DNA of 64,000 nt from an uncultured bacterium. Lineage in GTDB: Bacteria > Patescibacteriota > JAHJAL01. A program made the translations under genes and the position numbers. Location of the stretch: positions 66,466 through 130,465 of the forward strand of contig CALKWM010000038.1 of assembly GCA_938004065.1 (NCBI GenBank), read 5' to 3'. This document shows, one piece after another, positions 1,077-54,965 of the stretch; position 1 is the first letter of the stretch; each line of letters begins with the position of its first letter. The notes beneath the pieces are model-generated. The model was not told where the DNA came from and did not search any database. It worked only from the letters and a program-made list of their open reading frames with translations.

Positions 1077-4000
1077 TTATGGTGAATCGGGTGTGGACCA
1101 GATGTAACTACCACGATCATCGCTACCGGTATCAAAGAAGTTAAACCATTCGGCGGTGGTAAATGAAGTCCGATCAGATGCGGACGGTCCGGAATCGATG
1201 GCTAGAATATCGGGGACAATGGTATTTAATTTATACACTCCGCTCCAACTACCCATACCTCCGGTGTTGTCTTCATTGCAAAGATATAATCTGTGGAAAC
1301 CGTTGCTAATGATATTTATTGTATCTAGGTTGTTAAATAATGTACCGGAAGAACGACAGGTGCTGTCATCACTGTCCCAGGAATATTTTGAATAATTTAT
1401 CCCAGATGACGTATCGGTTGTACTCAGAGTGATAGTCGGATTTGATCCATACCAGCGGTCGGAAGAATTATCAGCAGATACCAATGGATTAGTTTTGTCG
1501 TATTTTTCAATAAATTGACGTTCTGTTCCCCAATTATCCGCACCGGTAAATGGTCGAATGTGTTTGTAATATATACCTTCGGTAACCAATTGATTGTCGA
1601 GATAAGGATTGGTGGTCAAACGACGTAAGTATTCATTGTTAATTTCTGTATCGGTTAAAGTACGAGTGTAAATTTTGGCTTCGTCAATATCACCTTTGAA
1701 GTAGTAATTTTCACAAATATTTCCCAGAGTACCCGCTTCGGCGCCGATACACAATACCGAGTCCATATAATAGATATTGGTCGTCATGACAGTTTGTGTT
1801 TGAAATTGTCCATCAAGGTATAGTTTTACATTTGAGCCGTCATAAGTGCCCGCTACGTGATACCATGTATCATTATTTATAGCTGCGTTGGAAATACACG
1901 CATATTTGTATGAATTGTATCCATCACTAACCGCAAAGCAGAGTTGAGTATTGGATAAGCTTAAACTATAGCCACTATGCCTGGTTTTGGAAATAATTTG
2001 TTGAGAAGCGATACTTTTATCCTCGGTTTTAAACCATGCTGATACTGTTAGATTGGTAGCCGGTTTAAGCGTGTTGTGATCAGTTATCTGAATTTCATCA
2101 TCACTTCCATCAAAATAACGCCCATTACCCAATTGGCCGGTGGAAATAGTTGACCCATTAAATGTACCTTCATTGTTGTTTACTGAGTGATCCCAAGCGG
2201 TCGCGGTATTATCATTTTCAAAATTCCACCAAGCAGCTAAATCAGACTCATTGAATGCAGCAACTGATGAATCATTTTCCAAGTAGTAAAAATAATCATC
2301 TGAGGGACTGGCCGGATCAGTCCAGCTAAAAGAGATCTGATCATCCGATCCGGTGTCGGTATAACCAAACCACTGATCGGATGTCAAAGAAGTACGGTCA
2401 GCAGAAGACTGTCCGGCATCAATAGAGGCAAGATCGGGTGTAGTATTGTCCAGTTTGTATATACCACTCCAACTGTTTTGATTGTTTACATTGTCTTGAT
2501 TGCATAAATATAAAACATGAGTTCCATTTGAAGGGATATTGATGCTATCGCTGTTATTAAAATTGGTACCACTTGACCTACAGGTAGAATCATTACTATC
2601 CCAAGAATATTTGGAATAATTCAGTCCTGAATGATTGTCTATTGTAGTCAAAGTTATGGAAGGATTGATGGAATACCATTGTTCGGAATTACCGGAAGCT
2701 GAAAGAGTGGGAGCAGTTTTGTCATATTTTTCGATAAATTGATACTCCGTTCCCCAACTATCCACACCATTGATTGGCCGAATGTGTTTGTAAAAAGTAC
2801 CTTCAGTTGCGGTTTGACTATCCAAATAATTGTTTTGGGTTAAACGAATCTGATATTCATTTAATATCTCCGTTGAAGACAAAGCTCTGGTGAAAATTTT
2901 GGTATCGTCGATTTGACCGGCGTAAAAGTCACCTCCGGTTTGACGACGGCCAAAATACATTTGCGAATAGGTAGGAGCGGAACCTGAAGTAGTGCCCTTG
3001 GATATGCCATCAACAAAAAATTCATAAGTTGTACCGGAACGGGTAACGGCAAAATGATGCCAGTTGTTATCAGTCGCATTACCACCATAAACCACACCCG
3101 ACGGACCACCGGAATTTTCCAACAGAATATTGCCACTGGTATCGATACATACCTGCAATCCGGCATCACCGGCTTGGGCAAGATCAATAATACGCTCTTG
3201 ATAGACTGGGATAGTTGAAGCTTTGATCCAACCGGTTACTGTCAAATTACCGGGAATTGATGAAGCCAAAGCATTGTCGTGTAGATAATCACTGGTGCCA
3301 TTGAAACTTCTGGCCAGTCCCAAATTGCCGGATGTAGTGGAAGTGCCATACAAAGTGGCATGATTTTCTTGGCCACTATGATCGAGCGCAGTTGTTATGG
3401 TATCATCTTCAAAATTCCACCAACCTACCAAATTGGTATTGGATATGGCATTAACTGAGGAATCATTTTCCAGATAATAGAAATAATCATCAGACGGCGA
3501 AGAGGGATCGGTCCAGACAAATGAAATCTGGTCATCGGATCCGGTTTGTGAATAGTTAAACCAAGTATCGGAAGTCAGCGAGGTGCGGTCGGATGAACTT
3601 GGGCCGGCGTCAAGTAATACAATGTCCGGATCTATGTCGATGTAATATGTTAAATGATACGAACTGTCGGAATAATTTCCGGCAATATCCAGACACCGGA
3701 AATATACATCTTTCTGCCCTTCACCACTTAAGTCCAATGTACAATTGGTCGTACTGATGCAAGTATTGGCCATGGCGCCGTAGGTGAGATCTGATTCATC
3801 CCATTTACAACTGGTCGCATCGGCGGAAGCGGTATAGACGACAAAAGTTGAGCTATTGTCGGTACCGTCGCTGTAGGGAACGGATGTATCGCCAGCGACC
3901 GAGGTAATGCTGGTGACGGCTGGACGGCTGACGTCTTTTTCAATATTGAATGAGAATGTATCAGTATAATCGCCGCTTTCTCCGGCCCGGGCGTATAGCG

Positions 4001-11621: not shown

Positions 11622-11659
11622 ATATGATAAAAGAATAATATGATTTGAGAAATCTTATT

Positions 11660-11688
11660 ATTGTAGCATATTTATCTTTTTTTTGCAA
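11660..11688 (-). promoter_or_regulatory. sigma70-like promoter of 1077..11621 (-35 TTGCAA, 17-bp spacer, extended -10 TGcTACAAT)
   Basis: Minus-strand sequence CCCATAAAAACCTTGCAA-AAAAAAGATAAATATGC-TACAAT-AATAAGATTT lies 40-70 bp upstream of the ATG. It is near-identical to the module upstream of 32390..50551. Confidence 0.6.
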
Positions 11689-11848
11689 GGTTTTTATGGG
11701 AAAAAACATTTTTTACATTTATGTCATGAAATGGCTTATTGGGTGGGGGTTTTGGGGTGAGTTCAAAAAACCCTGAAATAGTTTTTCAGAGTTTTTTGCT
11801 ATGTAAACAAAATGAACAACGATTGGAGAGAAAAATGTAAAGTACCAA

Positions 11849-11901
11849 GATCCTGAATCGCTCGAGTATTCGCTTCGCTCATCTCGGGTTCAGGATGACA
11901 A
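11849..11901 (+). repeat. palindromic intergenic element, copy A (GATCCTGAA-N36-TTCAGGATGACAA)
   Basis: 8-bp outer stem ATCCTGAA/TTCAGGAT, an inner CTCGAG..CTCGGG stem (one G-U pair) and a conserved 3' GATGACAA tail. Lies between the 11950..19683 stop and the 1077..11621 promoter. Confidence 0.6.
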
Positions 11902-11949
11902 TAGTCTGTGATTTACTTGGAGATTGGATATTGGTACTTGGAAATTAAC

Positions 11950-12430
11950 TTAGTAACTCGATGTCGCAATATAGATAATCTCGGTCGCGTAGAAACCGGT
12001 AGTGGTAAATGTAGGTGAGAGATTCAATCGATAACCGATTCTGGTTTGTTCTAGGCCCGGTCCGGTGGAACCGGCAACGGGGTAATAATCGGTAGAGAAA
12101 CCGGCCCATTTGTTGCCACCGCCGGAAGTAAATCGATCGGGGTCACCACCTTCCGGAATAGTTGAGTCGGTGGTGGTGTAACCAAAATATCCATTGGAGC
12201 TAGGTACCAGCCAGGTGGTGGGAGAGGTGTTGGTACCGGTGAAATCATTGATATCGGTCGGACCGGAAAGCTTGCCGGTATAGCGAACTACGAGTAGGTA
12301 ACCATTATCCGAATTGGTGTCAACCGTGATATCGTGGGCGGCGATTTTGTTGTCTCCACCGGAGATATTGCCAAAAGGTAGAGTGTTGGGTGAGGTGGTG
12401 GCAAAATTGGTGGCGGAACCATTTACATTG
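11950..12430 (-). other. conserved C-terminal module (WxL-like?) of the giant-protein family; homologous modules at 19768..20250 and 32390..32840
   Basis: Last ~150 aa of 11950..19683, 19768..30987 and 32390..50551. The three align at L.FG.L.V....V.....GY.V, at DFTGTN..P..W..P...G.FGY.T.DST, and at the terminal G.Y..T.[IVL].[YI]V....Y*. Confidence 0.55.
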
Positions 12431-19683: not shown

Positions 19684-19767
19684 TTTGGAAAGGAAATATT
19701 ACTCTTGGAAAAAAATATTTTTATGATTTTATTATATCTCAATTTAATTTCATATTTTTTGCTGCTA

Positions 19768-30987: not shown

Positions 30988-31000
30988 ATATTTATTTTTT

Positions 31001-32230: not shown

Positions 32231-32255
32231 ATTATTTTTAAAATGTATTTATAAA

Positions 32256-32306
32256 TTATTTTCTGGATCCTGGATATCGAAGCGGTCAAGTGGACTTTCG
32301 CTTCCA
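32256..32306 (+). repeat. palindromic intergenic element, copy B (GGATCCTGGA-N27-TTCCAGGATGACAA)
   Basis: Outer stem GGATCCTGGA/TCCAGGAT(C). Inner stem GAAGCG-gtcaagtggacttt-CGCTTC. Lies 26-76 bp upstream of the ATG of 31001..32230 and downstream of the 32390..50551 stop. Confidence 0.6.
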
Positions 32307-32389
32307 GGATGACAACACTATTATTTATTATTTATTGTTTATTTTTTGTGCTCTTTCTAGTAATTAGTCATTGGTAATTCGTAATTATA

Positions 32390-38300: not shown

Positions 38301-41300
38301 AGACGATTGAGGTCATCGTCGTTGTCAGAAAGAGCGCCTAGACCAATGTTGTACAATCGCTTGATTTGATTGTCGGTCAATTTGGTTTTGGTCAGGAACG
38401 CGCCTTGGACATTTCCCTGGAACAAGTTGGTACCACCGGAGGAACCACCAATAGTGAGATTGTTTGTCGGATTGTTAATATCCAAATTGGCGGGAGTGGT
38501 GATGTCAGCTTCCGGTTCACCGTCAATGTAGATTTTCAAAATATTGTTTTGAGCATCGTGCACTCCGGCCAGATAATGCCAGGTGTCGGTTAGGTCATAT
38601 TCTTCAGACGCTGTGGTATACAAACCGGATCCCTTGCCAACAGTCGCTTCGTAAATAATTTTGCCGGCATTGGATGTAGTAGAAAGAGCAAAAGAAGTGG
38701 TAGCGGCAGTTAGTCCGGTTTGGCCAAATACCGTTTCCGAGGTAGTGGCACGAGAGGGTTTCACCCAGGCGCCAAAAGATAAATTGTTAGAATCGGTAAA
38801 ATTAAAATCCGAATGATCAGCAACACTGAGATAATTGGCACTGCCATCGAAATATAGAGATTTGCCTCGAACGCCTTGGCTCCAATCACTGTCGGACAAG
38901 GTAGCGCCAAAACCATGAATGCTCATATCATGGCTATGAATACCGCGATCAGAGACAGAGGCGACACCGGTTTGATCTCCGGCAATCCACATACCAACCA
39001 GATTGAGCGGACCATTCATACTTTCGGTAATGTATTTGGCGGTAATTTCTTTGGTAAAACCATTTTGATTATCGTGGCTGGAATCGTCGCTCAATCCACT
39101 GGTCAAGGTATCAATTATACCCAGACCATTGTCGGTAGCGGTAAATATTTTGTTACTGGAAAATTCATCGGCAATTGATTCGGATTCATTGACGAGAATG
39201 TCGTTGATCGGTTCCGTTGGGATTTGGTAAGTGGCGATGGCACTATCTTCATACAATTCGTTATAGTTGGCGATGTTAAAATTTTGTTTGTAAGTAATAA
39301 TGTTGTCGATATTGATCACATTGTTATCAGTGCCATTTGCCATATATATATGTCCATTGGTTGATAATTTTAGTTTATCGATACCATCACCCCCGCTGGT
39401 ACCGTAAATAACGGTGTTATTGTATTCGTCAATTACATTTACTCCCCCATTGGGACCACTAACACCGGCGGTCAGAGTAATGCGTCCGGCCAACAGTTCG
39501 GCATCCAGATCGTTGACGGATAGATCATTGAGGGTAATTTTATCGTCCTGGCCGAATTCATTGGACTGGTTACGGTAGGCAATATTGCCAAAGATAAGGT
39601 CAGAACCGGCTTCACTGCCGAAATATCGGGCGGAATCATCGATATAATCGACTTTCAAAATACCAAAACCGCTGGAATCGGAATTGCCGGCATAGAGCTG
39701 TCCGTTAAGCATATCAACGGATGTAATCAAAGTATTATCCCCACCCAGAAAATCATCGGTATTGGTATTGGTGAAACGCATCCAGAGCGAATTATCGAGC
39801 GTATCGATGATTTCAATCGACTTCTGATCGGGATCGGTGGTGTTGTCGGTGGCAATAATCGCCGCCACTTCGGGGAATGATCGTCTGATACCGCGCATAT
39901 TGGATCTTTCTTCGGTGTACCAGGAAGCAATTTTATATATTTCTCCGGATACGAATTTAGCGCTATATTTAAATGTAATATCGACACCGGTATCAGAGCC
40001 GTCAAAATAGAGATTGGATTTTTCGGCGGATGTTACATAAGTCGATGCCGACCAGCCGATTCCATTACTATTGGAAACTTTGTAAGTGGCCTCGCCGGTC
40101 GGACCACCGGCATCAATCTTGATCGCCAACTGGTCACTATTAGAACTTTGGTCACCACTGATTTCTATTCCGGCTGAACTGCTGGCAATCTCATCACCGC
40201 TAAAACTATAGTCATATTGATGTGCCAAGGCGCCGATCTGACCAGATGTCAGTTCTGAGTTATAAACCCGGACTTCATCGATCCGTCCGGCGAAGGGGAC
40301 ACCGCCGGAGGCACGGGAACCAATGGTGAAGGCCTGAGTATTTACAATTGTCGCTCCACCCAGACTATCACTCGATTTGGTCATTGTTTCCGCCTGACCA
40401 TCAACATACAGCATAGTGCCATCATAAGTACCACTGCCATCATAGGTAGCGACCACATGGTGCCACTGGCCATCATTTACTTTGGTCGAGCCGATCGAGC
40501 TGATGTAAGTGCTATTAATAACGTTACGTATTACTAAATTCAGCTTTCCGGTTGTAGAATTCAATGCCGACAAACTATAACCACGATAGTTACCGGAATT
40601 TTCCATTTTGGAGACGATAATATCGTCGGTGGTTGTATTGCTAGTTTTTATCCAGGCAGATAAAGTAAACGGTTGATTGTATTCAAAACTTAATGGCGAG
40701 ACATTGCCGACCGAGACATAATCATTGCTGTCGTCAAAATTGAGACCAAAATCATTGATACCACTGGACCAGACCGGGCCATTGGTAAGTGTTCCGGTAT
40801 TATTGTTCGTGGAGGCATCTTCGGTAGCCGTACCGGTTCCTTCATTCAAAGGCCAGTAGCCAACCAGATTGTCTGTTACGATATTGTTATTGTTTATTTC
40901 GTTTTGTTCTTCCACCGGCTGGACTTTAGTATATGGATTATCAGATTCATAAATGGTTTTAATTTCCTCTGCCGAAAATGCTTTACCGGCCAAGAGGACA
41001 TCATCGACGGTGCCGTAGAATTTTTCTCCAATTATCAAATCTTCTGAATTGATTGATAATGAGCCGTCATAAGTTTTTTCTTCCCTTAATTCACCATTGA
41101 TGAATATTTTTTGGCTGGTGCCGTCGTAGGTCTGAACGACATGGGACCAACCCTCATCCAGTTTGGAGCTGATAGTTTGCGAACCCAAAGTGGAATAGAA
41201 ATAATCATCGGTGGCGCCGATCGAGTAAGCGGTACCTTTTTTGATAATGTTGGTGGTTTCATCCAAATCAACCTCTTTGGCTTGTTCAGCCGCCAGGCTG

Positions 41301-44300
41301 GCAATAATGTCACTTGCCGGATTAATGTTATTAATTTTATTGACCCGGAAATCGTCAAAGAAAGTGTCGACATCATCACCGGTATTGGCGTAACTGGAAA
41401 GACCGGTAAACTGAGTCGTCATGGTCAAATCATATTCACTGCCGCTGCCGAAACTGGTCCAGTCGGTATGATTGTGTTTTTTGTAATAAAAACGGAATGT
41501 ATTATCATATTTTCTGATTTTCAAATCAAAGTCATTGTCAGTAAAATTAGCGTCATTACTGGTAACACTGCCGGCATCTTCAACTTTGAAATTAACTTTC
41601 TGCCCTGACCAGTATTTGCGCATGCCCTGCACGTGGTTGCTGTCATCTTCGTACACTATCAAACCACCCTGCTGATCATCTTCACCGAGTGAGGCCTGTA
41701 TGCGGACAGTAAGTTCATAATTTTGTCCCGTCATATCAGTATCGGCCAGCAGAACCGGGGCGGAATTGTCCGCCTCCCACATATTGCTATCTTCCAGGGC
41801 CTCGATCCACAGCCAGCCATCTTGTTTACCCCCCTCGCTCCAACTGCCGGCAACTTCCCGGGTCCAACCCCATTGATCGGTGTTCAAAACTCCATCTTCG
41901 AAGTCATCATAGATATCAAAAGTGGCTTGCCCATTAGTTTCACTCACTGCTGTCGGATTGCCATAATACATAGTAAATGAAGAAGTACCATTGTCGGGAA
42001 TTTTTATCCAGACAACAGAAGTACCGCCGACCGCCCAGCGTTCAATCCAATAGTTTAGTTTGTTACCGTTGTCATCAAAGAATCGGATATCGGAACCATC
42101 TTCATTAACATTGGCATAATCGATATCACCGGAATCCATTTCCAGTTTAACTTGATAATTGTCGGCGGGGGTATTTGACGAAAGGGTGACGGTGCGTTTG
42201 TACATCCAGTTGGTTTCGCTTTCCAGGGTGGCCGCACTTTCAGTACCGGAATATTTTTTAACAAACAAATTATCGATTTCGAACGGTTTAGAGTAATTGG
42301 TTATACCGATTTTTAGTGGTGTTTCTGAAGAATAAGTTGAATCATAAGATTTTTCCCAGCTAATGCCGCCATCACTACTCTTCTGATAAATTGCACCGGA
42401 ATTATTTTTCAGGGGCATGCTTACTTTGTAAGTTGTTCCGTTGGTCCAGGTACCCGCCACACTTGGTGTGCGGTTATTGCCATCTTCATAGACATCAACC
42501 GTCTGGGAATTGAGGTCATAATAAGCGTAAATCAAATCACTTTGATCTGTGCCGGTACCGCCGTCGTGCCAGCCAAACATGATGTGGCCGGTACTTGAGG
42601 TTGGTTTATAGTCAAGTCTTAATTCATATTTGTCGCTACGATTGAAGGTGCCAATGCTGGTCAGGCCATTGCTTCCCCAGGCACCCGAACCGCCGGTGGC
42701 GATCAATTTATCATTCTGGGAAAGATAAGACCCATTGTCAAATACCGACCATTTATCGGTGTCTATAGTCGTACCGGTAAAGTCATCAAAAAACGGAAAA
42801 GTAAGTTCTCCATAACTTTCTGATGATACATTGCTATTGCCATAATACATGAAGATTTTTTCTGTGCCGGCGTCGGGTATATTGACCCAGATACTGGACC
42901 GGTTGGACCAGGTAGCGCTATTCCAATATTCTATCCAGTAGTTTAATTTATTGAAATTGGAGTCATAGAAACGGATGTCCTCACCACTTCCTTGGGCGTT
43001 GGAGTAGGGGAATGAGGAATCGAGCTGTACCTGAACCTGATAATTATCGGTGGGAGTGGCCGGTGCTAAACTGATCCCCCGTTTATAATCCCAGCTTTCC
43101 TCTCCGGACAGGTTGGCGTTATTGACCGGCTGATAATTTTTGGCCAATGCAATCTGATCAAAATAGACCGGCAGATCGGCGCTGGTATCGGACCAGCTCG
43201 CCACGCCAGTGCGTTCAGCCGCGAACGATTTGTAACTAACATTAGTCAATTGCGTCCAACTGGTCGAGTTATGGTCCTTAAAAAAGAAATAATATCCACC
43301 CTGTTGTTTCACTATTGCTAAATCAACGACGGTCGGTATGGCATTATTTTCATATGTAATATTCGAATTATTATCGGTTTCATCAATAATAACCATCGCC
43401 GCCGCCGCACCGCTTTCATTATAAGCCGGGCCGAAGAAGAGGTAATTATCGTCGTCTTGATAAATCATCAGGCCCGTTTTCGTTTTGGGATAAGAAGCCG
43501 ATGGTTTAGAGAGATCCGATTCAAACTGGATAGTTGTTGATAACTCATAATCAATTCCCATATAATCCGCCTGGCCGATAATCATCGGCGCACTGGCCGC
43601 GTCGCCGCTCATATTCTTGCCATTTTGCGCTTTCAACTTCATCCAGCCGGATTTATCTACTCCTTCGTTCCAGGAAGTATTATCCACCCGGATTTTTGAC
43701 CATTTGTTTTGATCAAACTGGCCGTCGGTAAAATTATCATACAGGGAAATTGTGTTGTCGCCATCTTCAGTTGTGAAAGACTGACCGTCGCCATATTGCA
43801 TGTAAAAAGCGGCCGTTCCCTGATTTGGGATTCTAACATAAATAGTTGAATTGCCCCCATAGTTCCAGTCGAAAAAGAAATAATCCAGACTGTTGCCCAA
43901 CAGGTCATAAAATCTGATATCGCCGCCATCACTTTGGACTTTAGAGTAATCGAAATTGGCGCCGGTCAATTCTACTTTGGCCTGATAATTGGCTTCCTGG
44001 GTGGGGCTATCAAAAATTAAAGTTTGCTGGTAGAGACTGGCCGGTGAGCCGGTTTGCTGACTGCCCAGAGAAATGACGGAATTACCCTCGCTAAAGGCCC
44101 GTCTTTCATAGTTGGCCAGCACTTCGGCGGCTGTCAAGGCCCGATTGTAAATTTTTGTCTCATCAATACTACCGGTGAAATAATTATTATTGGTATTATA
44201 ATCACGCCGACCAACCGTGAAGGGAATATCGAAACTATTGTGCCCCGAGGTTGAGTCGGTGCCAACCAACTGTCCATCGACGTATAATTTTTTCACTCCC

Positions 44301-47300
44301 GCTTCGTAAGTTCCAACGACATGATGCCAGGTATTTAGAGATAAAGTGGTGGGCGCATCAAGATATTCACTGGGGTTGCTGGTCCAGAATGTCGGTCGAT
44401 CAGTGTAGCTTGAACGACCGGCGGCAATGGACCATTGTCCGCTACCGCTTGACCCCCGGCTGATTATTCCATTCATATTGGCGTGACTGGCTGTCGGGTA
44501 AAACCAGGATTCAGCCGTAAAGGTCGCATTGGCAGTCATATTATAGTTGGCGGTGGTGGCATAATCATTTCCATCAAAGACGACATTGTCGCCGCTGGAA
44601 AATTTTACATCACTGCGCTCCGCCCACTGACCACCATCCAAAGTAGGTGAAGACCAGGCCGGATCATTGGCACTGGCGGCAAAGTTCAGATTACGAGAAT
44701 TACCCGAGTTGTCAGTGATAGTTGTGCCGCTACCATCATCCATGTGCCACTGAGCAATCAAACCGTTATTATCAGTTTCTTTAGTAAAAGTTTTATCGAA
44801 ATTTGTTTCCGCGGTCGCACCGGAATTACCATAATACATATATACTTTGCTGGTGCCGGCTTCCGGAATTTTTAGCCAAATCTCGGAGGTGCTGAGTGGA
44901 TCATAATTCTCAATCCAATAATTAATGTCGTTGCCATTTTGATCGGCGAAACGCAGGTCGGACCCGTCGCCGTTGGCTTTCAAGTATTCAAAATTGGATT
45001 GATTGAGAGTTAATTTAAGTTGCAGATTGTCCACGCCAGTTGATGGATTTATTGTCAGTGACTTGGTATAAATCCAGCCATCCAACGCCCCCGGATTGAT
45101 CCAGGCGCCGATAGTGAATTGATTGGTATTGTTCAGGCTTTCTTCATGCGGCACTATCACATAATCATTCTGCCCATCAAACGACAAAGCCGAACCATAT
45201 TTTCCATTTTCCGACCAGGCCGGCAAATTGGAGTCGGTTTCGTTATTGGCGATGGAGACGGTTGGCAATATTACGGTGTAATTTCTCCGTTCGTATATGT
45301 TCCTTATCTGTTCTGCCGAAAGTGTTTCACTGACAATTCTAACCTCATCAATTGAACCGGAGGTGTATTGTCCATTGTAGCCCCGCATGAAGTAGTTTAT
45401 TCTGTAGGGATAGGAGTCGTTGGAATTAGACGAAGATCCATACGCTTCCAGTCGTCCATCGATATATAGATAACCTGTTTGGGAGGAATCCTGAGTAAAG
45501 GCAATATGATGCCAGTTACCATCAGCCACCAGAGTGGTTGATTTTAGATTATGTTGCCAGGCGGAATTATAATGTATAAATTCGACATAGCCGCTACGCA
45601 GTACGAAATTGGCGTAAATATCACTACTATCGCGGCCCAACAAGACTTTTCCGTATTCACCATTTTGAGCGGTATCTGTCCCTTTGTACCACATAGATAG
45701 GGAGAAGTTTGACGTGTCCGAATATGATATCGCTGACGCCAGTGAAACATGATCATTGACACCATCAAAAGTCAGATAATCACCGGAAGAAAAATTGGTA
45801 CTACCGTCATCACCAAATCGTCCGCCATCCGAGCCGTTCCAGGTCGGACCGTTTTGCAGAGTGCCGGTATTGGCGTAACTCGAACTATCAGAAATAGTGG
45901 TTGAAGGATTGCCTTCGTCCATGTGCCATAGACCTCGTATATTGCTTGAATCCAAGTCATAGTCTTTAGTAAACACATTATCAAAACTGTCAGCGGAGCT
46001 GGCGCCGGAATTACCATAATATATATAGAATGTTTTAATCGTTTTTGCTTCAATCGTGGGCAGTTGCACCCAAAATTTGGTTTGATTGGGAGTGGAGTTG
46101 GCGCTGTCATAAAAATAATCTACCGGCGTGGTCATGTCCGATTCGGTAAAGCGGACGTCATCAAAATCTGTCTGCATTTGTGCCGGTACGAGTGAAGTGG
46201 TATCTATCAAAACGGGCAACTGATAATTCGTTAAATCATAAGGATTCTGGGAATTATCGACATATAAAGGGGAACGATAATTCCAGTTCGTGTCATACCA
46301 GACCGGTTGCGCGACATATTGTTCGGAAATTAATTTTAGACCGCCCACGGCAGCTACCGGTTCGGAGGCGGAATATTTTCGCACAAATAGATCATCGATC
46401 TCAAATGATTTGCTATGATTGGTCAATCCGATTTTCACCGGAGTTTCAGACGAATAACTGCTGTTGTAACTGGTTTCGAAATTTAAACCGTCATCCACAC
46501 TTTTTTGATAAGTGTTACCACCGGCTGATTTCAACTGCATTTTCACCCGATAATTCGTGCCGTTGTTCCACCGGCCCGCCAGGGTCGGGGTGCGATCAAC
46601 CCCGTCCTCATAGACATCAACCGTTTGCGAACTCAAGTCATAGTAAGCATAAATCAAATCGGTATAACTATTGCCGGTCCCGCTGTCGTGCCAGCCAAAC
46701 ATCATGTGATCATTGATTTCGGTCGGTTTATAGCGGAAATTCAGTTCCAGATCGGCACGGGTGAAGGTTTGTGTGCCCCGGAGTCCGTTACTGCCCCAGG
46801 CACCCGAACCGCCGGTGGCAATCAGTTTATCATTTTGTGACAAATAGTTGCCGTTATCAAATTCCACCCATTTGCTGGTATCAATGGTGGTGCCGGAAAA
46901 ATCGTCAAAAAATTCAAATACATTTTCGCCATCGGAAACATTTTCGGCAGTTGAATTGCCATATTTCATCGTCAAAACACTGGTACCGCTGTCAGGTACT
47001 TTGATCCAAACCAGCGAATCACCGGTGTCATCCCAGTTTTCAATCCAGTAGGATAATTCATTATTATTAGTGTCATAAAAACGTAGATCTCCCCCATCAT
47101 CTTGGGAGTTCTGGTAATCAAAATTTTCCGGATTTAATGTCAGCATCACCTGGTAATCATCAACCGGAGTGACGGGGCTCAGATCAATTTCGCGAGTGTA
47201 TAACCAGGTGCCACTTTGGCCGCCGGCCAGATAGCCGGCGTTGTTGGTACCGGAAGAATCGGCTACAATCGATCCCGTACTTTCGTCAAAATGCCACAAC

Positions 47301-50300
47301 CCGCTAACGCGGTCATCGACTTTATTGACGCCATAACGCCAGTTGGCATCGTGGAAAGGTGAAAAAGCGACTAATCGCCCCTGAGAGATTTGTAGTTTGG
47401 CTCCGCTTGATTCACCGTATTCATTCAATGCTCGCAGTTCGGTTATACTTCGAAAACGATTGGCGCTTAGTTGTCGAACTATATTGCCGGCACGTAATTT
47501 TATTTTTTCGGTTAAACTCTTGCCATCTAAGTCGGTACCGGATATTTGTAAAACTCCCGGGGTAATTATTTGTAGATCATCGAGTGCCAATTGTGAGTAT
47601 TCCGCAAATCCAATGGATTGGTCAAATGATATAATCGAGCCGGATCGGACTGTATAATCTTGGGAATAGTGATGGTAAATTTCATCGTTAGACAAAATTC
47701 GGTTATGAATTGCCAATTCGTCGATTTCACCGGTAAAGCCATTGCCTATGACAAGATCGTTATCATCAGCGGAAATTTCTCCCAGAAAATAGTATTCTTG
47801 TTGAATTACACCATCGACATATAATCTCAGATATTTGCCGTTATAGCTGCCAGTCAGATGATGCCAGTTATTGTCATTAATAATGCCGGCGGTTGATCCA
47901 GTACAGCTTTCCGCACTGCCGGCGGTATTTTGCCATTGATTATGGTCGTATATATAAAAGAACGGTCGGCCATCGGGACAGATCTCCAATTTATACTCAT
48001 TGTCTTTGGTTAAAATCGGCCCGGAAGAATCGGTCTTGATCCAGCTTTCGACGGTGATGTTGTCTGCAGGGGACAGAGAATAATGTTGACCAAGGTTGAT
48101 GTTGTCGGTTGTATTAAAAGAACGACTACGCCCTACCCGGCCGTTGTCCACCAGGGTGGTGCCGGTAATAACGCCGTGATTGGCCTGACCGGAATAATCA
48201 TTGCTATCTTCCATGTCCCACCAGCCGATCAATTTTGACTTGGCGTTTTCATACAAATTGAGGATTTCGTTTTGGGTTAGAACTGTAGAATACATTTTTA
48301 GTTCGTCGATTTGACCGTCAAAATGCGTGGCGCTGGTGAAAGCGGTAGAGCCAATTTTCAGATTGGCGGTACCGTTGGCCATAGAGCCGGTGGCACTTTC
48401 ATCTGCATACAATATACTGTTTACATATATTTTAAAGTTTGAATCGGCTTCATCACGATTAACAATAATATGAGACCATTGTTGCGGTTTAATCAGACCT
48501 TTAGGACTGGTTATTTGGTACAGTTGAGTGGCATTCAAAGCGGTGGCGGTAAATTCTACCGCACCTTCGGTTGAAATCTCGAGATTGTATTCCCAGTTGG
48601 AGGCGGTACCTTTACTCAATACCGGTTGGCGATTGTCCAGATTGTCAGGATTGACCCAAACCGAGAAACTGAAATCATCGGCAAAAGTAAATTTATCATC
48701 ATCGGGTATAATCACTTCTTCGTCATCGCCGAAAAATTCGAGTGCGCTACCGACCAGGCCGTCAATATAAGCCGGATCACCATTTAAACTGCCGGCAACG
48801 GCGTTGGTGGTAGTATCGTCTTCGACGCTGGTGGTCAAGTCATTTTCATCAAATGTATAGAGCGCTTCCAGATTGGCGGGATTGACCAGGCCAATCGAAT
48901 TATTCAAAGACAAGGTGTTTTTCAGTTCTTTATTGTAAGAATAGTTTGAGGTTGGTTCGGTGGTAGTGTCATAGAGTTTCACATCGGTAATTTCGTTGGA
49001 AAGCAATTGCCCATTAGCGGTGTTGATACCGTCAGTGGCGGTGAAAATATACGTAGTGGGGTCGATGTCAATCGGATACTCCAAATTGGCGACATTGACT
49101 ACCAATGCCAGATATAAATATTCCTGTGTTGAGTATTCCGGTGTGACATCAAGTAAAGGATATTGATCTTCCAAACCAATTTGTTCGATTGGATTAATTG
49201 TTTGGTCAAATTCCGGGGTGTTGGAAACCGGTTGGGCATCAGTGTCCAAATCAATTTCTTGAGCTTCGCTAACGCCAAGAGTATGAAATACGTTTTTGAC
49301 AACATATTTGAGTGCGTTGATGATCATATCGTAAAATGATTGATGGTCGCCGGTGTCCAAAGTTTGAACGGTGGCCGAAAGGTCAGATTCGTATTGCTGA
49401 TTTTCGGTTTGATCCGATTCTTTAACATCAATGCTTGATTCGTTTTCATCGATATTGTCTGCCGGTAGTGATTGATCAATTTCCATATCTTCTGTTTGGC
49501 TTAGGTTAAATCTGGATGAATCGATTTCCAGACCGGATCGGTATTCTTGTTCCGTCAATAGCTGTAAATATGCATTGGTGGAAATTTCTCCCTTGTTGTC
49601 AATCAAAAATGGCGCGGTAACCGAAGCGACCGTTGCCCCACTTTGATTTTGGTAGTGGATTTGATTATCAGACAAAACCGGTGTAACGTTTTCCAAATCC
49701 AATTGGTAGTAAAATATCCAGTTATTTTCACCATGATAACCACTGGCCAATTTGTCTATTTGCCTGGTGGTGTCTGATTTCAATATTAGATCTTCCTTGA
49801 TTCCTTGGCTGAGTGAGGTGTAAACCACATCCACATTGTCCCACTGGTTTTGATAAACCAATTTGTTTTCATCAGCTGAGGCGTTGGCAGTGTTGGCGGA
49901 AACAGGTTGATATTTGATTGAATAATCGATTTTTCGGGCAACTTGATTTTGATCTTCGACGGAGTTAAATTTTAGTTCCAATGGTTCATCTGATTTTTTG
50001 GGAATCGATAATTTATGCGGAGTTTGTTGAGACAGATAACTACCGTTTTCAAAGATCAATTTCGGGTCGATAATTTCCTCGGTTTGAGTTTCCGGATTGA
50101 TATATGTTTCAATCAATTGAGCTTTTTTCAAAGATTCGAGAGTATCATTACTGGCGGTATTTAAGCTGTTAACCAATTCGTTTTTTTCAAATTTACTGTC
50201 AATGTCTTTTAAATCTTTGTAAACCAATTCTTGTGAAGCGTTACCGATATTGTCGATAACTTTTGTTTTTTCTTCATCACTCAGTTTTGAAGTGGCCATG

Positions 50301-50551
50301 AAAACATCCGGATTTTCTTGCATGTTGGCGATTTTTTCCACCAATTCGTCGGCATGACTGCGGTCGATATCGGTGTATTGCACGAGATTGCCCCATTCGC
50401 TTTTTTGGGTTATGGGAGTGCTATTTACCGTTTCAATTTCCAAAGCAAATGCGGAAAATGATTGCAGGATCAACATAGTGGCCATCATGACAAAGATAGC
50501 TGTTTTAAAAGCTTTTTTGATAGTTTTGGTTTTGATTTTGTTTTTGATCAT
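32390..50551 (-). CDS. giant secreted multi-domain surface protein (6053 aa): LamG, DUF2341-like, Reg_prop-like and GH-like beta-propellers, WxL-like C-terminal module
   Basis: 18.2-kb ORF. Signal peptide (FVMMATMLILQSFSAFA|LE). An acidic/Q-rich N-region ends in LEYPIDIDPT. Multiple LamG signatures and at least 4 DUF2341-like modules. Two near-identical ~300-aa supra-repeats (...TIDT.KW..FDNG.YLSQNDKLIATGGSGAWGSNGL...FEID.LFV.KYS). A Reg_prop/Y_Y_Y-like propeller region (IYVGTDNGLSEIDL...). A 5-blade GH-like propeller (VLKDGDVYKMWYTG..G...YRIGYAISNDGINWQK x5). An Asp-box module (LISPNGTEEW...DYSTNGGVSYT). The C-terminus ends GDYDSTVSIVVIPRY*. Confidence 0.9.
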   Translation of the reverse strand: MIKNKIKTKTIKKAFKTAIFVMMATMLILQSFSAFALEIETVNSTPITQKSEWGNLVQYTDIDRSHADELVEKIANMQENPDVFMATSKLSDEEKTKVIDNIGNASQELVYKDLKDIDSKFEKNELVNSLNTASNDTLESLKKAQLIETYINPETQTEEIIDPKLIFENGSYLSQQTPHKLSIPKKSDEPLELKFNSVEDQNQVARKIDYSIKYQPVSANTANASADENKLVYQNQWDNVDVVYTSLSQGIKEDLILKSDTTRQIDKLASGYHGENNWIFYYQLDLENVTPVLSDNQIHYQNQSGATVASVTAPFLIDNKGEISTNAYLQLLTEQEYRSGLEIDSSRFNLSQTEDMEIDQSLPADNIDENESSIDVKESDQTENQQYESDLSATVQTLDTGDHQSFYDMIINALKYVVKNVFHTLGVSEAQEIDLDTDAQPVSNTPEFDQTINPIEQIGLEDQYPLLDVTPEYSTQEYLYLALVVNVANLEYPIDIDPTTYIFTATDGINTANGQLLSNEITDVKLYDTTTEPTSNYSYNKELKNTLSLNNSIGLVNPANLEALYTFDENDLTTSVEDDTTTNAVAGSLNGDPAYIDGLVGSALEFFGDDEEVIIPDDDKFTFADDFSFSVWVNPDNLDNRQPVLSKGTASNWEYNLEISTEGAVEFTATALNATQLYQITSPKGLIKPQQWSHIIVNRDEADSNFKIYVNSILYADESATGSMANGTANLKIGSTAFTSATHFDGQIDELKMYSTVLTQNEILNLYENAKSKLIGWWDMEDSNDYSGQANHGVITGTTLVDNGRVGRSRSFNTTDNINLGQHYSLSPADNITVESWIKTDSSGPILTKDNEYKLEICPDGRPFFYIYDHNQWQNTAGSAESCTGSTAGIINDNNWHHLTGSYNGKYLRLYVDGVIQQEYYFLGEISADDNDLVIGNGFTGEIDELAIHNRILSNDEIYHHYSQDYTVRSGSIISFDQSIGFAEYSQLALDDLQIITPGVLQISGTDLDGKSLTEKIKLRAGNIVRQLSANRFRSITELRALNEYGESSGAKLQISQGRLVAFSPFHDANWRYGVNKVDDRVSGLWHFDESTGSIVADSSGTNNAGYLAGGQSGTWLYTREIDLSPVTPVDDYQVMLTLNPENFDYQNSQDDGGDLRFYDTNNNELSYWIENWDDTGDSLVWIKVPDSGTSVLTMKYGNSTAENVSDGENVFEFFDDFSGTTIDTSKWVEFDNGNYLSQNDKLIATGGSGAWGSNGLRGTQTFTRADLELNFRYKPTEINDHMMFGWHDSGTGNSYTDLIYAYYDLSSQTVDVYEDGVDRTPTLAGRWNNGTNYRVKMQLKSAGGNTYQKSVDDGLNFETSYNSSYSSETPVKIGLTNHSKSFEIDDLFVRKYSASEPVAAVGGLKLISEQYVAQPVWYDTNWNYRSPLYVDNSQNPYDLTNYQLPVLIDTTSLVPAQMQTDFDDVRFTESDMTTPVDYFYDSANSTPNQTKFWVQLPTIEAKTIKTFYIYYGNSGASSADSFDNVFTKDYDLDSSNIRGLWHMDEGNPSTTISDSSSYANTGTLQNGPTWNGSDGGRFGDDGSTNFSSGDYLTFDGVNDHVSLASAISYSDTSNFSLSMWYKGTDTAQNGEYGKVLLGRDSSDIYANFVLRSGYVEFIHYNSAWQHNLKSTTLVADGNWHHIAFTQDSSQTGYLYIDGRLEAYGSSSNSNDSYPYRINYFMRGYNGQYTSGSIDEVRIVSETLSAEQIRNIYERRNYTVILPTVSIANNETDSNLPAWSENGKYGSALSFDGQNDYVIVPHEESLNNTNQFTIGAWINPGALDGWIYTKSLTINPSTGVDNLQLKLTLNQSNFEYLKANGDGSDLRFADQNGNDINYWIENYDPLSTSEIWLKIPEAGTSKVYMYYGNSGATAETNFDKTFTKETDNNGLIAQWHMDDGSGTTITDNSGNSRNLNFAASANDPAWSSPTLDGGQWAERSDVKFSSGDNVVFDGNDYATTANYNMTANATFTAESWFYPTASHANMNGIISRGSSGSGQWSIAAGRSSYTDRPTFWTSNPSEYLDAPTTLSLNTWHHVVGTYEAGVKKLYVDGQLVGTDSTSGHNSFDIPFTVGRRDYNTNNNYFTGSIDETKIYNRALTAAEVLANYERRAFSEGNSVISLGSQQTGSPASLYQQTLIFDSPTQEANYQAKVELTGANFDYSKVQSDGGDIRFYDLLGNSLDYFFFDWNYGGNSTIYVRIPNQGTAAFYMQYGDGQSFTTEDGDNTISLYDNFTDGQFDQNKWSKIRVDNTSWNEGVDKSGWMKLKAQNGKNMSGDAASAPMIIGQADYMGIDYELSTTIQFESDLSKPSASYPKTKTGLMIYQDDDNYLFFGPAYNESGAAAAMVIIDETDNNSNITYENNAIPTVVDLAIVKQQGGYYFFFKDHNSTSWTQLTNVSYKSFAAERTGVASWSDTSADLPVYFDQIALAKNYQPVNNANLSGEESWDYKRGISLAPATPTDNYQVQVQLDSSFPYSNAQGSGEDIRFYDSNFNKLNYWIEYWNSATWSNRSSIWVNIPDAGTEKIFMYYGNSNVSSESYGELTFPFFDDFTGTTIDTDKWSVFDNGSYLSQNDKLIATGGSGAWGSNGLTSIGTFNRSDKYELRLDYKPTSSTGHIMFGWHDGGTGTDQSDLIYAYYDLNSQTVDVYEDGNNRTPSVAGTWTNGTTYKVSMPLKNNSGAIYQKSSDGGISWEKSYDSTYSSETPLKIGITNYSKPFEIDNLFVKKYSGTESAATLESETNWMYKRTVTLSSNTPADNYQVKLEMDSGDIDYANVNEDGSDIRFFDDNGNKLNYWIERWAVGGTSVVWIKIPDNGTSSFTMYYGNPTAVSETNGQATFDIYDDFEDGVLNTDQWGWTREVAGSWSEGGKQDGWLWIEALEDSNMWEADNSAPVLLADTDMTGQNYELTVRIQASLGEDDQQGGLIVYEDDSNHVQGMRKYWSGQKVNFKVEDAGSVTSNDANFTDNDFDLKIRKYDNTFRFYYKKHNHTDWTSFGSGSEYDLTMTTQFTGLSSYANTGDDVDTFFDDFRVNKINNINPASDIIASLAAEQAKEVDLDETTNIIKKGTAYSIGATDDYFYSTLGSQTISSKLDEGWSHVVQTYDGTSQKIFINGELREEKTYDGSLSINSEDLIIGEKFYGTVDDVLLAGKAFSAEEIKTIYESDNPYTKVQPVEEQNEINNNNIVTDNLVGYWPLNEGTGTATEDASTNNNTGTLTNGPVWSSGINDFGLNFDDSNDYVSVGNVSPLSFEYNQPFTLSAWIKTSNTTTDDIIVSKMENSGNYRGYSLSALNSTTGKLNLVIRNVINSTYISSIGSTKVNDGQWHHVVATYDGSGTYDGTMLYVDGQAETMTKSSDSLGGATIVNTQAFTIGSRASGGVPFAGRIDEVRVYNSELTSGQIGALAHQYDYSFSGDEIASSSAGIEISGDQSSNSDQLAIKIDAGGPTGEATYKVSNSNGIGWSASTYVTSAEKSNLYFDGSDTGVDITFKYSAKFVSGEIYKIASWYTEERSNMRGIRRSFPEVAAIIATDNTTDPDQKSIEIIDTLDNSLWMRFTNTNTDDFLGGDNTLITSVDMLNGQLYAGNSDSSGFGILKVDYIDDSARYFGSEAGSDLIFGNIAYRNQSNEFGQDDKITLNDLSVNDLDAELLAGRITLTAGVSGPNGGVNVIDEYNNTVIYGTSGGDGIDKLKLSTNGHIYMANGTDNNVINIDNIITYKQNFNIANYNELYEDSAIATYQIPTEPINDILVNESESIADEFSSNKIFTATDNGLGIIDTLTSGLSDDSSHDNQNGFTKEITAKYITESMNGPLNLVGMWIAGDQTGVASVSDRGIHSHDMSIHGFGATLSDSDWSQGVRGKSLYFDGSANYLSVADHSDFNFTDSNNLSFGAWVKPSRATTSETVFGQTGLTAATTSFALSTTSNAGKIIYEATVGKGSGLYTTASEEYDLTDTWHYLAGVHDAQNNILKIYIDGEPEADITTPANLDINNPTNNLTIGGSSGGTNLFQGNVQGAFLTKTKLTDNQIKRLYNIGLGALSDNDDDLNRLGGTSDQSQCLALDKNNNTIYVGTDNGLSEIDLDRDVRTNYWTTATTPSLPSNDVSDIDFSGYQALVATNAGARIIKTDGSFSGNSSIGQLQSGKGRDVYTDGAYNYYVSNAGLDIIDIVNNTRHAFVLREDGFNSVAALDGLVFMGTDDDGIYAGNITTMSGESTITQPTFHASSTQPLLSNEIFDLYARRINGINYLVAGTGDGVVLLADYDTSNNYQVYFKNNDGDDITKVWLNEAGDLAYYNATDQRVRVFDDAIDPNLYPFQGSTYSYDRQYSVSTTPNYIGSEVNDLIYVANTSTAESGRDTFYIATNNGVSVIQEHSTPTSGTVKHYVNQKLHDERTGVLIPFDQSYTPENPDTNSYFNTVNNYDPTRAKYNFLSDPDLAGYWDFDQTLPAQIADRSGKNNHGGFGPNTGTSGGKTGNALYLDGNRSYLVVNDNASLHPTSAFSWSGWVWKDEAISNDNAGEPILASKFDGGNNGEFVLYFNKNNKLQLKVSDGSSAVTSGESSAIGTESWHHVAATFDSGNVNFYIDGQLDSTFTVAVTNLQLPPYNNQPASMTDLYLGNDWSVFNSPFGGYIDEVAYYTRALTPEEIQSHASLTDFSNSVTVNNQDSLAYRTSANLTTESGATETFYLNFDETLSGNQGETFTTAIESELQRPNLNMISYGGNTNNNVILNVGTSGSWDDVDVYAPFVLKDGDVYKMWYTGVAGTNDYRIGYAISNDGINWQKYSGNLCSGSGATGNGCIFEHNSSGFDSVYVYQPTVIKENNIYKMWYGGYDGSGLEIGYATSSNGVNWIRQNSGNPVITIGSAGSWDDWGVTYPHVAKEGSVYKMWYSGEQSAYNFRVGYAMSTDGVNWTKYDDANTADCGFSEANDNGCMIDIGSSGSFYQNDIETPKVIKLNNLYYLYFYGQDGSGVFRAGLMTSVNGIDWQIGNEGNPVFNLNTAGQWDDAHIFGLVPIFEKNNIKHYYSAHDGANSRIGLTTLDFEAGRYGKSLRIENNDIYQYDVTNDINRSQGTISTWVKLDNTTDALHEIYNLQSSSGNYQDGLFLSAKSGQITAGLNGDIKLVATNTLTNNYWNHFVLTWGKPSANNENLKLYLNGQLIQTGIYDAVIGQIYNQLQIGGNKAESRDYLKGNIDELRIYNQALNADEITELYNGSLGNSSKINTISKVSEGTIEFDYTPNWNSNVDDEHRVLFDAMAGDPSRVDEQYNQSKTAVNRLRIWKEEGSTLGDNDRLHFGILDNDGDLYEVYTNETIDWTSDTTYRITAQWDLDNNDLTAGGANKIRIMVNDSLVAGDNFTSGVTANKKKNGTDTGIAEEITMSNIGEKFWIGSGAPNPLVNMIDNPSFELNNGSDPADWTKTGTITYDTSQTNSKYGTDAVSITGPDTTNKLQQTIKGLIPGTWTLSWWAKGSASDSTQDMDVQISAGSLTGTTGNNTDPGTTYKYHYITFANDTYGDLTLSLSANSGETVWYDGITLAKGRMDENMQNSSGSFSDFQISTNLKTEAELNAIYLAESYDSINQNATLAGETNNTTSLGVKKVNTSPTASDEIIFVGTKGYTSEGALTQITFGSPDERTDEWRQDSSGGSLTSNRVNSISYSIIRNNLAVATDDAGIFGFYDDVPASISLISPNGTEEWEGGSAQTISWNTDFGICEHIQLDYSTNGGVSYTEIINNLDDTGSYTWDPVASLNSANTTIKVNCMDPFDNELATDVSDANFIIDSTSPEFTIYNIPNPSGDNMVFVRGSGTDTGGATSITEVQYKVDNSDWSNANINSGLGTTSVEFDFSTTALDAGQHTIYVKGKDSSLPGGNELDLSTAAQRTFNVDALSISFDKTLFPINLSVNGDMSMTDSVNVTVTGYGTDYSLAIKADKPPTNRYYPSENIPFYIGNDSWSDSTVGFGWKNTNFNSGNYNDFETGAYEIFKNSFASLIGDTTTVDFKTVIDWTVPAGDYDSTVSIVVIPRY

Positions 50552-50598: not shown

Positions 50599-50627
50599 AT
50601 TGTAGCATAATGGTCAAAAAAATGCAA
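50599..50627 (-). promoter_or_regulatory. sigma70-like promoter of 32390..50551 (-35 TTGCAT, 17-bp spacer, extended -10 TGcTACAAT)
   Basis: Minus-strand CCATAAAAACCTTGCAT-TTTTTTGACCATTATGC-TACAAT-AATACGATTT lies ~50-80 bp upstream of the ATG. It shares the CCATAAAAACCTTGCA and TATGCTACAATAATA.GATTT blocks with the 1077..11621 promoter. Confidence 0.6.
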
Positions 50628-52076: not shown

Positions 52077-52271
52077 GGTAGGTAAAGATTAAAAAAATAA
52101 TAAATTATAAATCCTAACGAACTGTAAATAAGATTGTGAAACTTTACAACTAATTACAAATTACTAACAACTAATTTATGAATAAAAGGGAAAAAGCGGG
52201 ATTGCAAACTATGATAATAATTACTTTTATATTATGAGAGTATTTTTGCCTGTTTTTAGTATTAATTTCAA

Positions 52272-54829: not shown

Positions 54830-54965
54830 TTTTTTATTGTTTCATGATATTATTCTAATTGTATCATTTTGTAACAATTAGTAAATACCCCTGAAGTAAA
54901 AAGATTAGGAGCAATCCATCTTAATTTCTGTCAATTTTACTACAGATAGGAGAAAAGTTAAAGGG

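Follow-up and report, generated by a model that had tools for sequence, protein, structure and literature searches.

The window, the 64,000-nucleotide stretch of contig CALKWM010000038.1 analyzed here, encodes four giant secreted proteins in tandem. Two of them, together with a third large protein on the same contig, end in about 310 residues that are, judged by sequence and modeled fold, a complete pilin of the type found in the Pam pilus of the Candidate Phyla Radiation (CPR), composed of an N-terminal domain (NTD), a donor-strand linker and a truncated-immunoglobulin (Ig) C-terminal domain (CTD). We propose that the giants are lectin arrays displayed on, or anchored through, Pam-type pilus machinery, where they act as attachment heads. 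We put the probability of this reading at roughly 55%. The source, judged from its nearest relatives and from the matches to a CPR-specific model, is probably a small-genome Patescibacteria (CPR) bacterium.

The giants are labeled G1 to G4, and D1474, U383, U329 and U873 are proteins of the same contig outside the window. L004 is the sequence past the low end of the window and L005 the same contig past its high end. L003 is another assembly, and L007 and L011 are other Patescibacteria metagenome-assembled genomes (MAGs). NTD and CTD always refer to the pilin, and the N-module is the N-terminal module shared by the giants. The four genes are as follows, with lengths in amino acids (aa):

1077..11621, minus strand: G1, 3514 aa; signal or anchor segment, N-module, LamG_3 array, GH130-like propeller, Cys-containing Ig modules; pilin module absent.
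11950..19683, minus strand: G2, 2577 aa; signal anchor, divergent N-module, beta-helix-containing middle, Kre9-like Ig domain, complete pilin module.
19768..30987, minus strand: G3, 3739 aa; signal peptide, N-module, six LamG_3, two DUF2341, GH130-like propeller, Kre9-like Ig domain, complete pilin module.
32390..50551, minus strand: G4, 6053 aa; signal peptide, an extra N-terminal ~150 aa, N-module with long inserts, then ~12 LamG_3, six DUF2341, GH43_C2/DUF1349-like and GH130-like modules, Kre9-like Ig domain, Big_7-like Ig domain and a divergent CTD-like terminal domain.

An earlier note on this DNA had described four co-directional open reading frames (ORFs) without internal stops, each beginning with a signal peptide or anchor. 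Its coordinates and lengths proved exact. All four ORFs lie on the minus strand, ORF calling gives ~15,900 stop-free codons across them, and a hydrophobic signal or anchor segment is visible at the N-terminus of each translation.

The proteins that carry the complete pilin unit are located as follows:

11953..12918, minus strand: pilin module of G2, aa 2256-2577 (NTD and linker aa 2256-2419, CTD aa 2419-2577).
19771..20682, minus strand: pilin module of G3, aa 3436-3739 (CTD aa 3583-3739, at 19771-20241).
L004 23547-27971, ~2.5 kb past the window's low end: D1474, LamG protein of 1474 aa, third gene downstream of G1.

The C-termini of G2 and G3 are 32% identical over ~400 aa by BLAST. This shared region consists of a Kre9/KNH-like Ig domain with an SPNGGE.W motif, followed by the ~310 residues of the pilin. 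The last ~145 residues of G3 match the family model NF058581 (CPR_Pam_pilin_C) over positions 4-148 of 148 (E 2.2e-9, 37.6 bits). Near-full-model matches were also obtained for D1474 (1.4e-10, 41.5 bits), whose pilin module is the best-scoring Pam-type match of the locus, and for U383 (7e-8, 32.7 bits), a stand-alone secreted small pilin of 383 aa. Two small metagenome pilins, P0003 (36.8 bits) and P0006 (30.3 bits), match the same model. The whole mature length of U383 aligns with the last 310-400 aa of D1474 (1e-26), G2 (1e-23) and G3 (3e-16). Local profiles of the NTD (with linker) and of the CTD each match G2, G3 and D1474 in the correct order. The NTD-linker-CTD architecture is therefore present in these three proteins, while G4 lacks the NTD and G1 lacks both domains. 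D1474 has no N-module; its N-terminus carries repeated S-x-N-Y motifs and is accompanied by one LamG_3 and four Cys-containing Ig modules. Because this N-terminus differs, the pilin module evidently also joins other head domains.

The predicted fold of the CTD agrees with this assignment. In the AlphaFold2 (AF2) model of the G3 pilin module, the CTD has a predicted local confidence (pLDDT) of 70-89. Its top Foldseek matches in the PDB are almost all donor-strand pilins, namely CfaB, CsuA/B, FimA, FimG, PapA, the pilin domain of PapG and TasA fibres. A marginal match to Fimbrial_CS1 (Pfam) was found in one of the eight CTDs scanned. Reading the C-terminal aromatic residue as an outer-membrane beta-signal was rejected; the terminal strand of a pilin fold was preferred.

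The earlier note had assigned the same C-terminal module to three of the four giants and had taken it for a constant anchor. The shared end stands for G2 and G3 but is marginal for G4. It appears to be a pilus-subunit module and not simply an anchor, which gives a more specific and testable mechanism.

The end of G4 is located as follows:

32393..32842, minus strand: terminal domain of G4, 150 aa; probable divergent pilin CTD, preceded by neither a pilin NTD nor a linker.

Against the CTD profile, the last ~140 aa of G4 score weakly (17.9 bits; hhalign probability 68%, E 4.8e-5, 117 columns), and the NTD profile finds no pilin NTD in this protein. The Kre9-like Ig domain is common to G4 and G2/G3 (BLAST E ~1e-6 to 4e-7). 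From these comparisons, the G4 terminal domain is probably a diverged pilin CTD, able in principle to take up a donor strand. The C-terminal end of G1 is instead a duplicated ~400-aa unit made of a LamG domain and a Cys-containing Ig module. With G1 lacking the module and G4 divergent, the scheme of constant N-terminus, variable middle and constant C-terminus put forward in the earlier note fits cleanly for only two of the four proteins, G2 and G3.

The Pam pilus of Ca. Mycosynbacter amalyticus provides the closest comparison. Cryo-EM of its filaments shows pilins in which a nine-strand NTD is followed by a linker strand and then a truncated-Ig CTD, with the linker strand inserting into a neighboring subunit's CTD (Troman et al., bioRxiv 10.64898/2026.03.03.709456). 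PapD-like chaperones with a C-terminal transmembrane (TM) helix, PamC and PamD, are co-encoded, and PamT, a CTD-only subunit, is placed at the tip (10.64898/2026.03.03.709456). The same preprint finds a tail-fibre-like gene consistently near pam operons, reports no usher, and states that how CPR pili recognize the host is unknown (10.64898/2026.03.03.709456). The words "adhesin", "LamG", "giant" and "WxL" do not occur in its text (10.64898/2026.03.03.709456). With the pilins PamA, PamB and PamE, the module described here appears to share the Sec signal, the beta-sandwich NTD, the linker strand, the truncated-Ig CTD and the restriction to CPR. Co-encoded two-domain chaperone-like proteins with a C-terminal TM helix and a nearby tail-fibre-like gene are further likenesses. 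In contrast to Pam, the pilin unit here forms the last ~300-320 aa of proteins of 2577-3739 aa (1474 aa in D1474), and these proteins are loaded with LamG, DUF2341, propeller and beta-helix modules. A Pam shaft subunit measures ~39-55 kDa; the giants (2577-6053 aa) do not fit this size, and only U383 does.

U383 is the first of three consecutive genes, U383-U329-U873, at window-equivalent ~67.0-71.9 kb on the strand opposite to the giants. The other two are:

L005 15095-16084, ~5 kb past the window end: U329, 329 aa, two-domain, with a signal peptide and a C-terminal TM helix; directly after U383.
L005 16186-18807: U873, 873-aa membrane protein with Big_1 and CarboxypepD_reg-like domains and several TM segments.

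The architecture of U329, with its signal peptide and C-terminal TM helix, is that described for PamC and PamD. U329 matches the Pfam family WxLIP_PGBD/DUF916 at E 2.6e-4 (21.4 bits), below the gathering score. Its homologue in L003 (L003 10764-11699), which also has a C-terminal TM helix, reaches 28.5 bits against a cut-off of 27.3. No match to DUF3324 was found in either protein (Pfam). A membrane protein of ~870-890 aa accompanies the pilin-chaperone pair in both loci (U873; L003 275-2938) and may be an assembly platform or anchor. A Cys-containing Ig module is common to U873, D1474, G3 and G1. Besides the same trio of pilin, chaperone and large membrane protein, L003 contains six chaperone-like paralogues, another protein with the CTD and, adjacent, a gene for at least 2988 aa.

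We propose the following mechanism. The giants would be exported by Sec. After export, U329, which is membrane-anchored and chaperone-like, would cap the presumed open CTD groove of G2, G3 and D1474. It would then give way in the groove to a linker strand from the next small pilin, and the lectin giant would be carried outward on a growing filament of small pilins. The NTD and linker retained by G2, G3 and D1474 could additionally let them supply a strand to a subunit farther out. An acceptor-only position at the extreme tip, as taken by FimH/PapG or PamT, suits G4 best, because it has a CTD-like domain only, not preceded by a pilin NTD or linker. G1, which has no pilin module, would have to be set free or retained by other means. 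Glycans on a host or partner cell would be bound by the variable middles, with their LamG, DUF2341, GH130-like propeller and beta-helix modules.

This arrangement resembles the tip adhesins FimH, PapG, CsuE and CfaE, in which an N-terminal receptor-binding part is followed by a C-terminal strand-accepting pilin domain; PapG, FimG and CsuA/B are themselves among the fold matches of the G3 CTD. The binding part of those adhesins is a single lectin domain, whereas here it is an array of thousands of residues. Unlike true tip adhesins, G2 and G3 keep a putative donor strand, and neither an usher nor an outer membrane is expected here. [quoted passage not shown]

Several points weigh against the proposal that the giants are carried on a Pam-type pilus. 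All matches to NF058581 score 30-42 bits, below the curated cut-off of 55. G2 and G4 do not match this model at E ≤ 5, and G2 is tied to G3 through the 32% identity and the local CTD profile. The Foldseek matches of the G3 CTD reach E values of only ~1e-3 and TM (template modeling) values of ~0.5, and the NTD portion of the AF2 model is unreliable. The C-terminal 399 aa of G3, the CTD profile and U329 have no sequence match in the PDB, so the comparison with PamA and PamB is indirect. The chaperone likeness of U329 comes from its sequence and architecture, not from a modeled fold. The pilin-chaperone core lies outside the window, ~16 kb from G4 and on the opposite strand, with housekeeping genes in between; this distance and the low model scores are also differences from Pam. 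The pilin module is missing from G1, and the relationship of the G4 terminal domain is marginal. Finally, polymerization of the giants, and the position that a subunit of 2500-3700 aa would take in a filament, are hypothetical.

An alternative is that the C-terminal module is a surface anchor that does not polymerize, with the giants forming a coat or fibrils attached directly to the cell. The end of G2 and G3 would then be held by a DUF916/WxLIP-like membrane protein through strand insertion, or by binding to the cell wall. A precedent is found in the WxL clusters of Firmicutes, which have the same three-part logic: a small domain-only protein, a large protein with the C-terminal domain plus domains at the N-terminus that bind the host, and a DUF916-DUF3324-TM partner (PMC10599100), which is predicted to insert a beta-strand into WxL (PMC10599100). 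The likeness to large WxL (CscC-type) proteins and WxLIP extends to the small domain-only protein, the C-terminal domain in large proteins and a putative DUF916-like membrane partner (PMC10599100; PMC1534035). The WxLIP_PGBD matches of U329 and its L003 homologue point the same way, and subunits of 2500-3700 aa are sterically awkward within a filament. However, no WxL match was obtained with Pfam in the C-terminal segments at E ≤ 5, nor in any of the eight CTDs even at E ≤ 10. The proteins described here have no WxL motif, carry a two-domain C-terminal unit with a linker, are several-fold larger and come from Patescibacteria. The closest sequence model is the CTD of a pilin defined by cryo-EM, and the fold matches are polymerizing pilins. 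A whole NTD with its donor-strand linker is kept in G2, G3 and D1474 and would be needless for an anchor, which argues for polymerization. We therefore consider a purely anchoring module possible, though on balance unlikely. The WxLIP_PGBD matches in chaperone-like proteins beside small pilins also hint at a kinship, possibly an evolutionary one, of the CPR Pam system with the WxL/WxLIP systems of Firmicutes.

The N-terminal ends of the giants show a second shared module:

10707..11507, minus strand: N-module of G1, aa ~39-305; ends YPVIIDPT.
18850..19458, minus strand: N-module of G2, aa 76-278; ends YPVVFDPT.
30112..30858, minus strand: N-module of G3, aa 44-292; ends YPVIIDPT; modeled core a beta-supersandwich.
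49016..50086, minus strand: N-module of G4, aa 156-512; ends YPIDIDPT.

The YP[VI]x[IF]DPT motif occurs once in every giant, at aa 285 (G1), 271 (G2), 272 (G3) and 492 (G4). By BLAST, the N-termini of G1 and G3 are 33% identical over ~410 aa, G2 and G3 match weakly, and G4 gives no match. A profile built from 147 relatives outside the window matches G1 (2.6e-54), G3 (2.2e-52), G4 (1.1e-29) and G2 (2.8e-15). The homology across the four proteins is thus real, since this outside profile matches all four N-termini, and the shared domain described in the earlier note is borne out. Its supposed role in secretion is unsupported; the module is predicted to be a supersandwich head of wide occurrence. 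The core of the AF2 model of G3 is a galactose-mutarotase-like beta-supersandwich of the type found in CAZymes, resembling in structure comparison the accessory supersandwich of GH31, GH92, GH97 and PL33 enzymes. The model of the first ~110 aa is too poor for interpretation. The N-terminal 320 aa of G3 have no useful sequence match in the PDB, and neither Pfam nor NCBIfam holds a model of the module.

A full HMMER scan of 1.84 billion representatives found the N-module in 2957 protein clusters at E ≤ 1e-3, of which 361 reach E ≤ 1e-10; nearly all matches are close to the N-terminus of very large proteins. LamG_3 arrays were present in all of the 22 better matches sampled. The closest genomic relatives are Patescibacteria, Saccharibacteria and Dojkabacteria MAGs. 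Distant carriers are proteins of 2000-3700 aa from Terrisporobacter, Paenibacillus, Streptomyces, Lentzea, Actinoplanes and Frankia. The four of these that were scanned (Terrisporobacter, Paenibacillus, Streptomyces, Lentzea) are all RHS-repeat proteins with CBM96, DUF6531, Golvesin_C or Disaggregatase. These RHS-repeat toxin/CBM96 (DNRLRE) proteins of Firmicutes and Actinobacteria resemble the giants in being secreted proteins of 2000-3700 aa with an N-module ending in YPV(V/I)IDPT near the N-terminus. They differ in what follows the module: CBM96, DUF6531, RHS repeats and a toxin tip in the carriers, LamG arrays and the pilin module in the giants, none of which matches RHS_repeat or DUF6531 in the Pfam scan. 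As a head domain, the N-module is promiscuous and widely distributed among large secreted proteins of monoderm bacteria, RHS toxins included, and in the proposed mechanism it would be just such a generic supersandwich head.

The pilin module recurs with the N-module in other genomes. Among the 150 best N-module representatives, 10 end in the CTD, one being G3 itself, and in all nine from other genomes the pilin NTD stands directly before the CTD. Two loci from the N-module search of species-representative genomes contain the homologous arrays that the earlier note had suggested looking for: in L011, three giants stand in tandem in the same direction and all end in the CTD, one (3639 aa) having the N-module as well, and L007 has a tandem pair of CTD-ending giants. 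The N-module giants of Saccharibacteria and Dojkabacteria in the sampled loci have no CTD, and the two end modules thus combine freely. A word-indexed protein search gave eight matches with the CTD, six with the N-module and none with the G4 terminal domain; it is insensitive and did not recover the window's own giants.

The earlier note knew of no description of this exact end-module family and had proposed hidden Markov model searches and structure prediction as checks. The searches show the ends to be homologous (N-module in all four, C-terminal module in G2 and G3), yet both modules belong to wider families, one of them recently characterized. In the structure predictions, the N-module core is a supersandwich and the G3 CTD is pilin-like, while the pilin NTD and the front of the N-module could not be interpreted. 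The end modules do not define a closed family, unlike the dedicated family of surface fibres inferred in the note. What stands of the proposed cell-surface attachment apparatus is sound, namely secreted multi-lectin attachment proteins with homologous end modules, but these modules are not what had been supposed.

The middles of the giants are dominated by non-catalytic binding modules. Pfam finds seven Laminin_G_3 stretches in G1, six in G3 and seven plus five in two overlapping halves of G4, together with two DUF2341 in G3 and six in G4. Further matches are GH43_C2 and DUF1349 in G4 and Beta_helix in G2. GH130-like propellers match weakly in G1, G3 and G4, near or below the gathering score and with partial model cover. 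Of the mosaic drawn in the earlier note, the LamG, DUF2341, beta-helix and Cys-containing Ig modules are thus found and the GH-like propellers are found weakly, but Asp-box modules are essentially absent (0-1 strict motifs per giant in a motif scan). Blade repeats with a period of ~210 nucleotides (nt; ~70 aa) that encode ...YKMWY... occur in four copies in G1, five in G3 and two in G4. They lie at 7158-7842, 27418-28330 and 35948-36215 of the window, are 60-83% identical in DNA, and overlap or adjoin the best GH130-like propeller matches.

These middles allow another view of the giants, as mainly polysaccharide-processing enzymes for nutrient scavenging of the Csc type and not host adhesins. 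The GH130-like, GH43_C2, DUF1349 and Beta_helix matches would fit such a role, as would the likeness of the N-module to the accessory supersandwich of GH31, GH92, GH97 and PL33 enzymes; WxL/Csc clusters were first proposed to serve carbohydrate utilization (PMC1534035). However, the GH130 matches are weak and partial, no catalytic-domain family matched convincingly in the Pfam scans, LamG_3 and DUF2341 prevail, and the pilin module is left unexplained. An enzymatic function is accordingly improbable as the main one. Attachment is also the role proposed for the giant Patescibacteriota proteins of >4000 aa with DUF2341/FhaB-type features, for which adhesion or host interaction and domain shuffling among paralogues have been suggested (PMC11809585). 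Giant size, DUF2341 modules and a proposed adhesive role are likenesses to the proteins described here; end modules and a link to a pilus system were not defined in that study (PMC11809585).

Repetitive LamG and propeller modules are a known assembly hazard, and ORFs of this size might be artefacts, either chimeras of repeats, as the earlier note had considered, or decayed genes. We regard this as extremely improbable. Exact copies of G1 occur on at least four contigs of at least 50 kb (NCBI, ENA and Logan assemblies), and an identical G4 is found in a separate Logan assembly. Residue-for-residue the same proteins are present in NCBI GCA_036848155.1 (326 kb), ENA ERZ724101 (86 kb) and Logan assemblies. 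The window contains no long near-identical DNA repeats; the longest internal repeats are 60-83% identical and at most 289 nt. Identical copies in independent assemblies and repeats of at most 83% identity show that G1-G4 are not assembly chimeras. The run of stop-free codons also speaks against decay, and a G4 orthologue, P0114 (6032 aa), keeps the C-terminal end at 76% identity. The G+C content is 40-49% in the giant genes (window 1-51000) and 33-41% in the flanking housekeeping genes (52000-64000). This is probably an effect of amino acid composition, rich in Gly, Thr, Ser and Asp, and not of transfer.

Other features of the locus are the following:

31001..32230, minus strand: 409-aa ORF, cytoplasmic and S-adenosylmethionine-methyltransferase-like (Methyltransf_11, E 7e-6, C-terminal); no signal peptide.
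Window 1..981, continued at L004 20641-22704, minus strand: tail-fibre-like protein, 687 aa, secreted; C-terminal Peptidase_S74 intramolecular chaperone outside the window.
11660..11688, minus strand: sigma-70-type promoter of G1, TTGCAA, 17-nt spacer including TGc, TACAAT.
50599..50627, minus strand: sigma-70-type promoter of G4, TTGCAT, 17-nt spacer including TGc, TACAAT.
11838..11905, minus strand: repetitive extragenic palindromic (REP)-like hairpin (TTGTCATCCTGAA...TTCAGGATC), just 3' of the G2 stop.
32262..32320, minus strand: the same REP-like hairpin, just 3' of the G4 stop.

The 409-aa ORF, not mentioned in the earlier note, lies between G4 and G3 and stops 13 nt upstream of the start of G3. 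Its product might act on the giants by modifying them, or have nothing to do with them. The fifth ORF that the note had placed at 1..981 indeed starts at 981 and runs past the window edge; it encodes the 687-aa tail-fibre-like protein, which weakly matches the N-terminus of Bdellovibrio mosaic adhesive trimer fibres. Downstream of G1 this protein is followed by a 260-aa Lcl_C-like protein and then by D1474.

The promoters of G1 and G4 are nearly identical, each with an extended -10 (TGcTACAAT); they are the only two matches to their pattern in the window and lie within a 46-nt stretch that is 72% identical. The REP-like element (TTGTCATCCTGRA...TYCAGGATC) occurs four times, at 11889-11901(-), 32303-32315(-), 61495-61507(+) and 61620-61632(-), a number reached in 0 of 100 shuffles. 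It always stands just 3' of a gene: G2, G4 and, as a convergent pair, the ORF at 60229-61482. The two folded copies form only modestly stable hairpins (z -1.4 and -2.0), and a separate hairpin with a T-run is seen by eye downstream of the REP-like hairpin of G2. Taken together, the shared promoters and REP-like hairpins suggest three transcription units, read from the DNA as G4; the 409-aa ORF with G3 and G2; and G1 with its downstream genes. The ORF at 60229-61482(+) encodes a thioredoxin-like CxxC (SCGHCQ) followed by a multi-TM region that by eye resembles DsbD/CcdA. This could be machinery for handling disulfides, located close to the genes of the Cys-containing secreted proteins.

A broader idea, which we hold to be doubtful, is that Pam pili, the Firmicutes WxL/Csc systems and the present loci are one ancient monoderm system, in which a DUF916-type membrane chaperone drives donor-strand exchange. 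In some Patescibacteria it would have been adapted to serial giant lectin subunits, with G4 as the cap, then G2, G3 and D1474, then a shaft of small pilins. If so, interchangeable tandem gene cassettes would yield a tip fibre of modular build, which reaches host cells and determines host range.

The Pam pilus and the giant DUF2341/FhaB proteins of Patescibacteriota were known (10.64898/2026.03.03.709456; PMC11809585). The fusion of a complete Pam-type pilin, as predicted here, to giant lectin arrays is not mentioned in the Pam preprint. The YPVxIDPT head module emerges as a general feature of very large secreted monoderm proteins, RHS toxins included, and, to judge by the chaperone-like partners, the CPR Pam system may be related by descent to the WxL/WxLIP clusters of Firmicutes. 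Tandem arrays of several MAGs preserve the pilin unit, and the contig of the giants also encodes a small pilin and a membrane-anchored chaperone-like protein. A Pam-type unit on such proteins would connect two observations, host recognition by CPR pili and cell attachment by LamG/DUF2341 giants. It offers a testable model of episymbiont attachment, in which interchangeable lectin heads would be carried on donor-strand-exchange pili.

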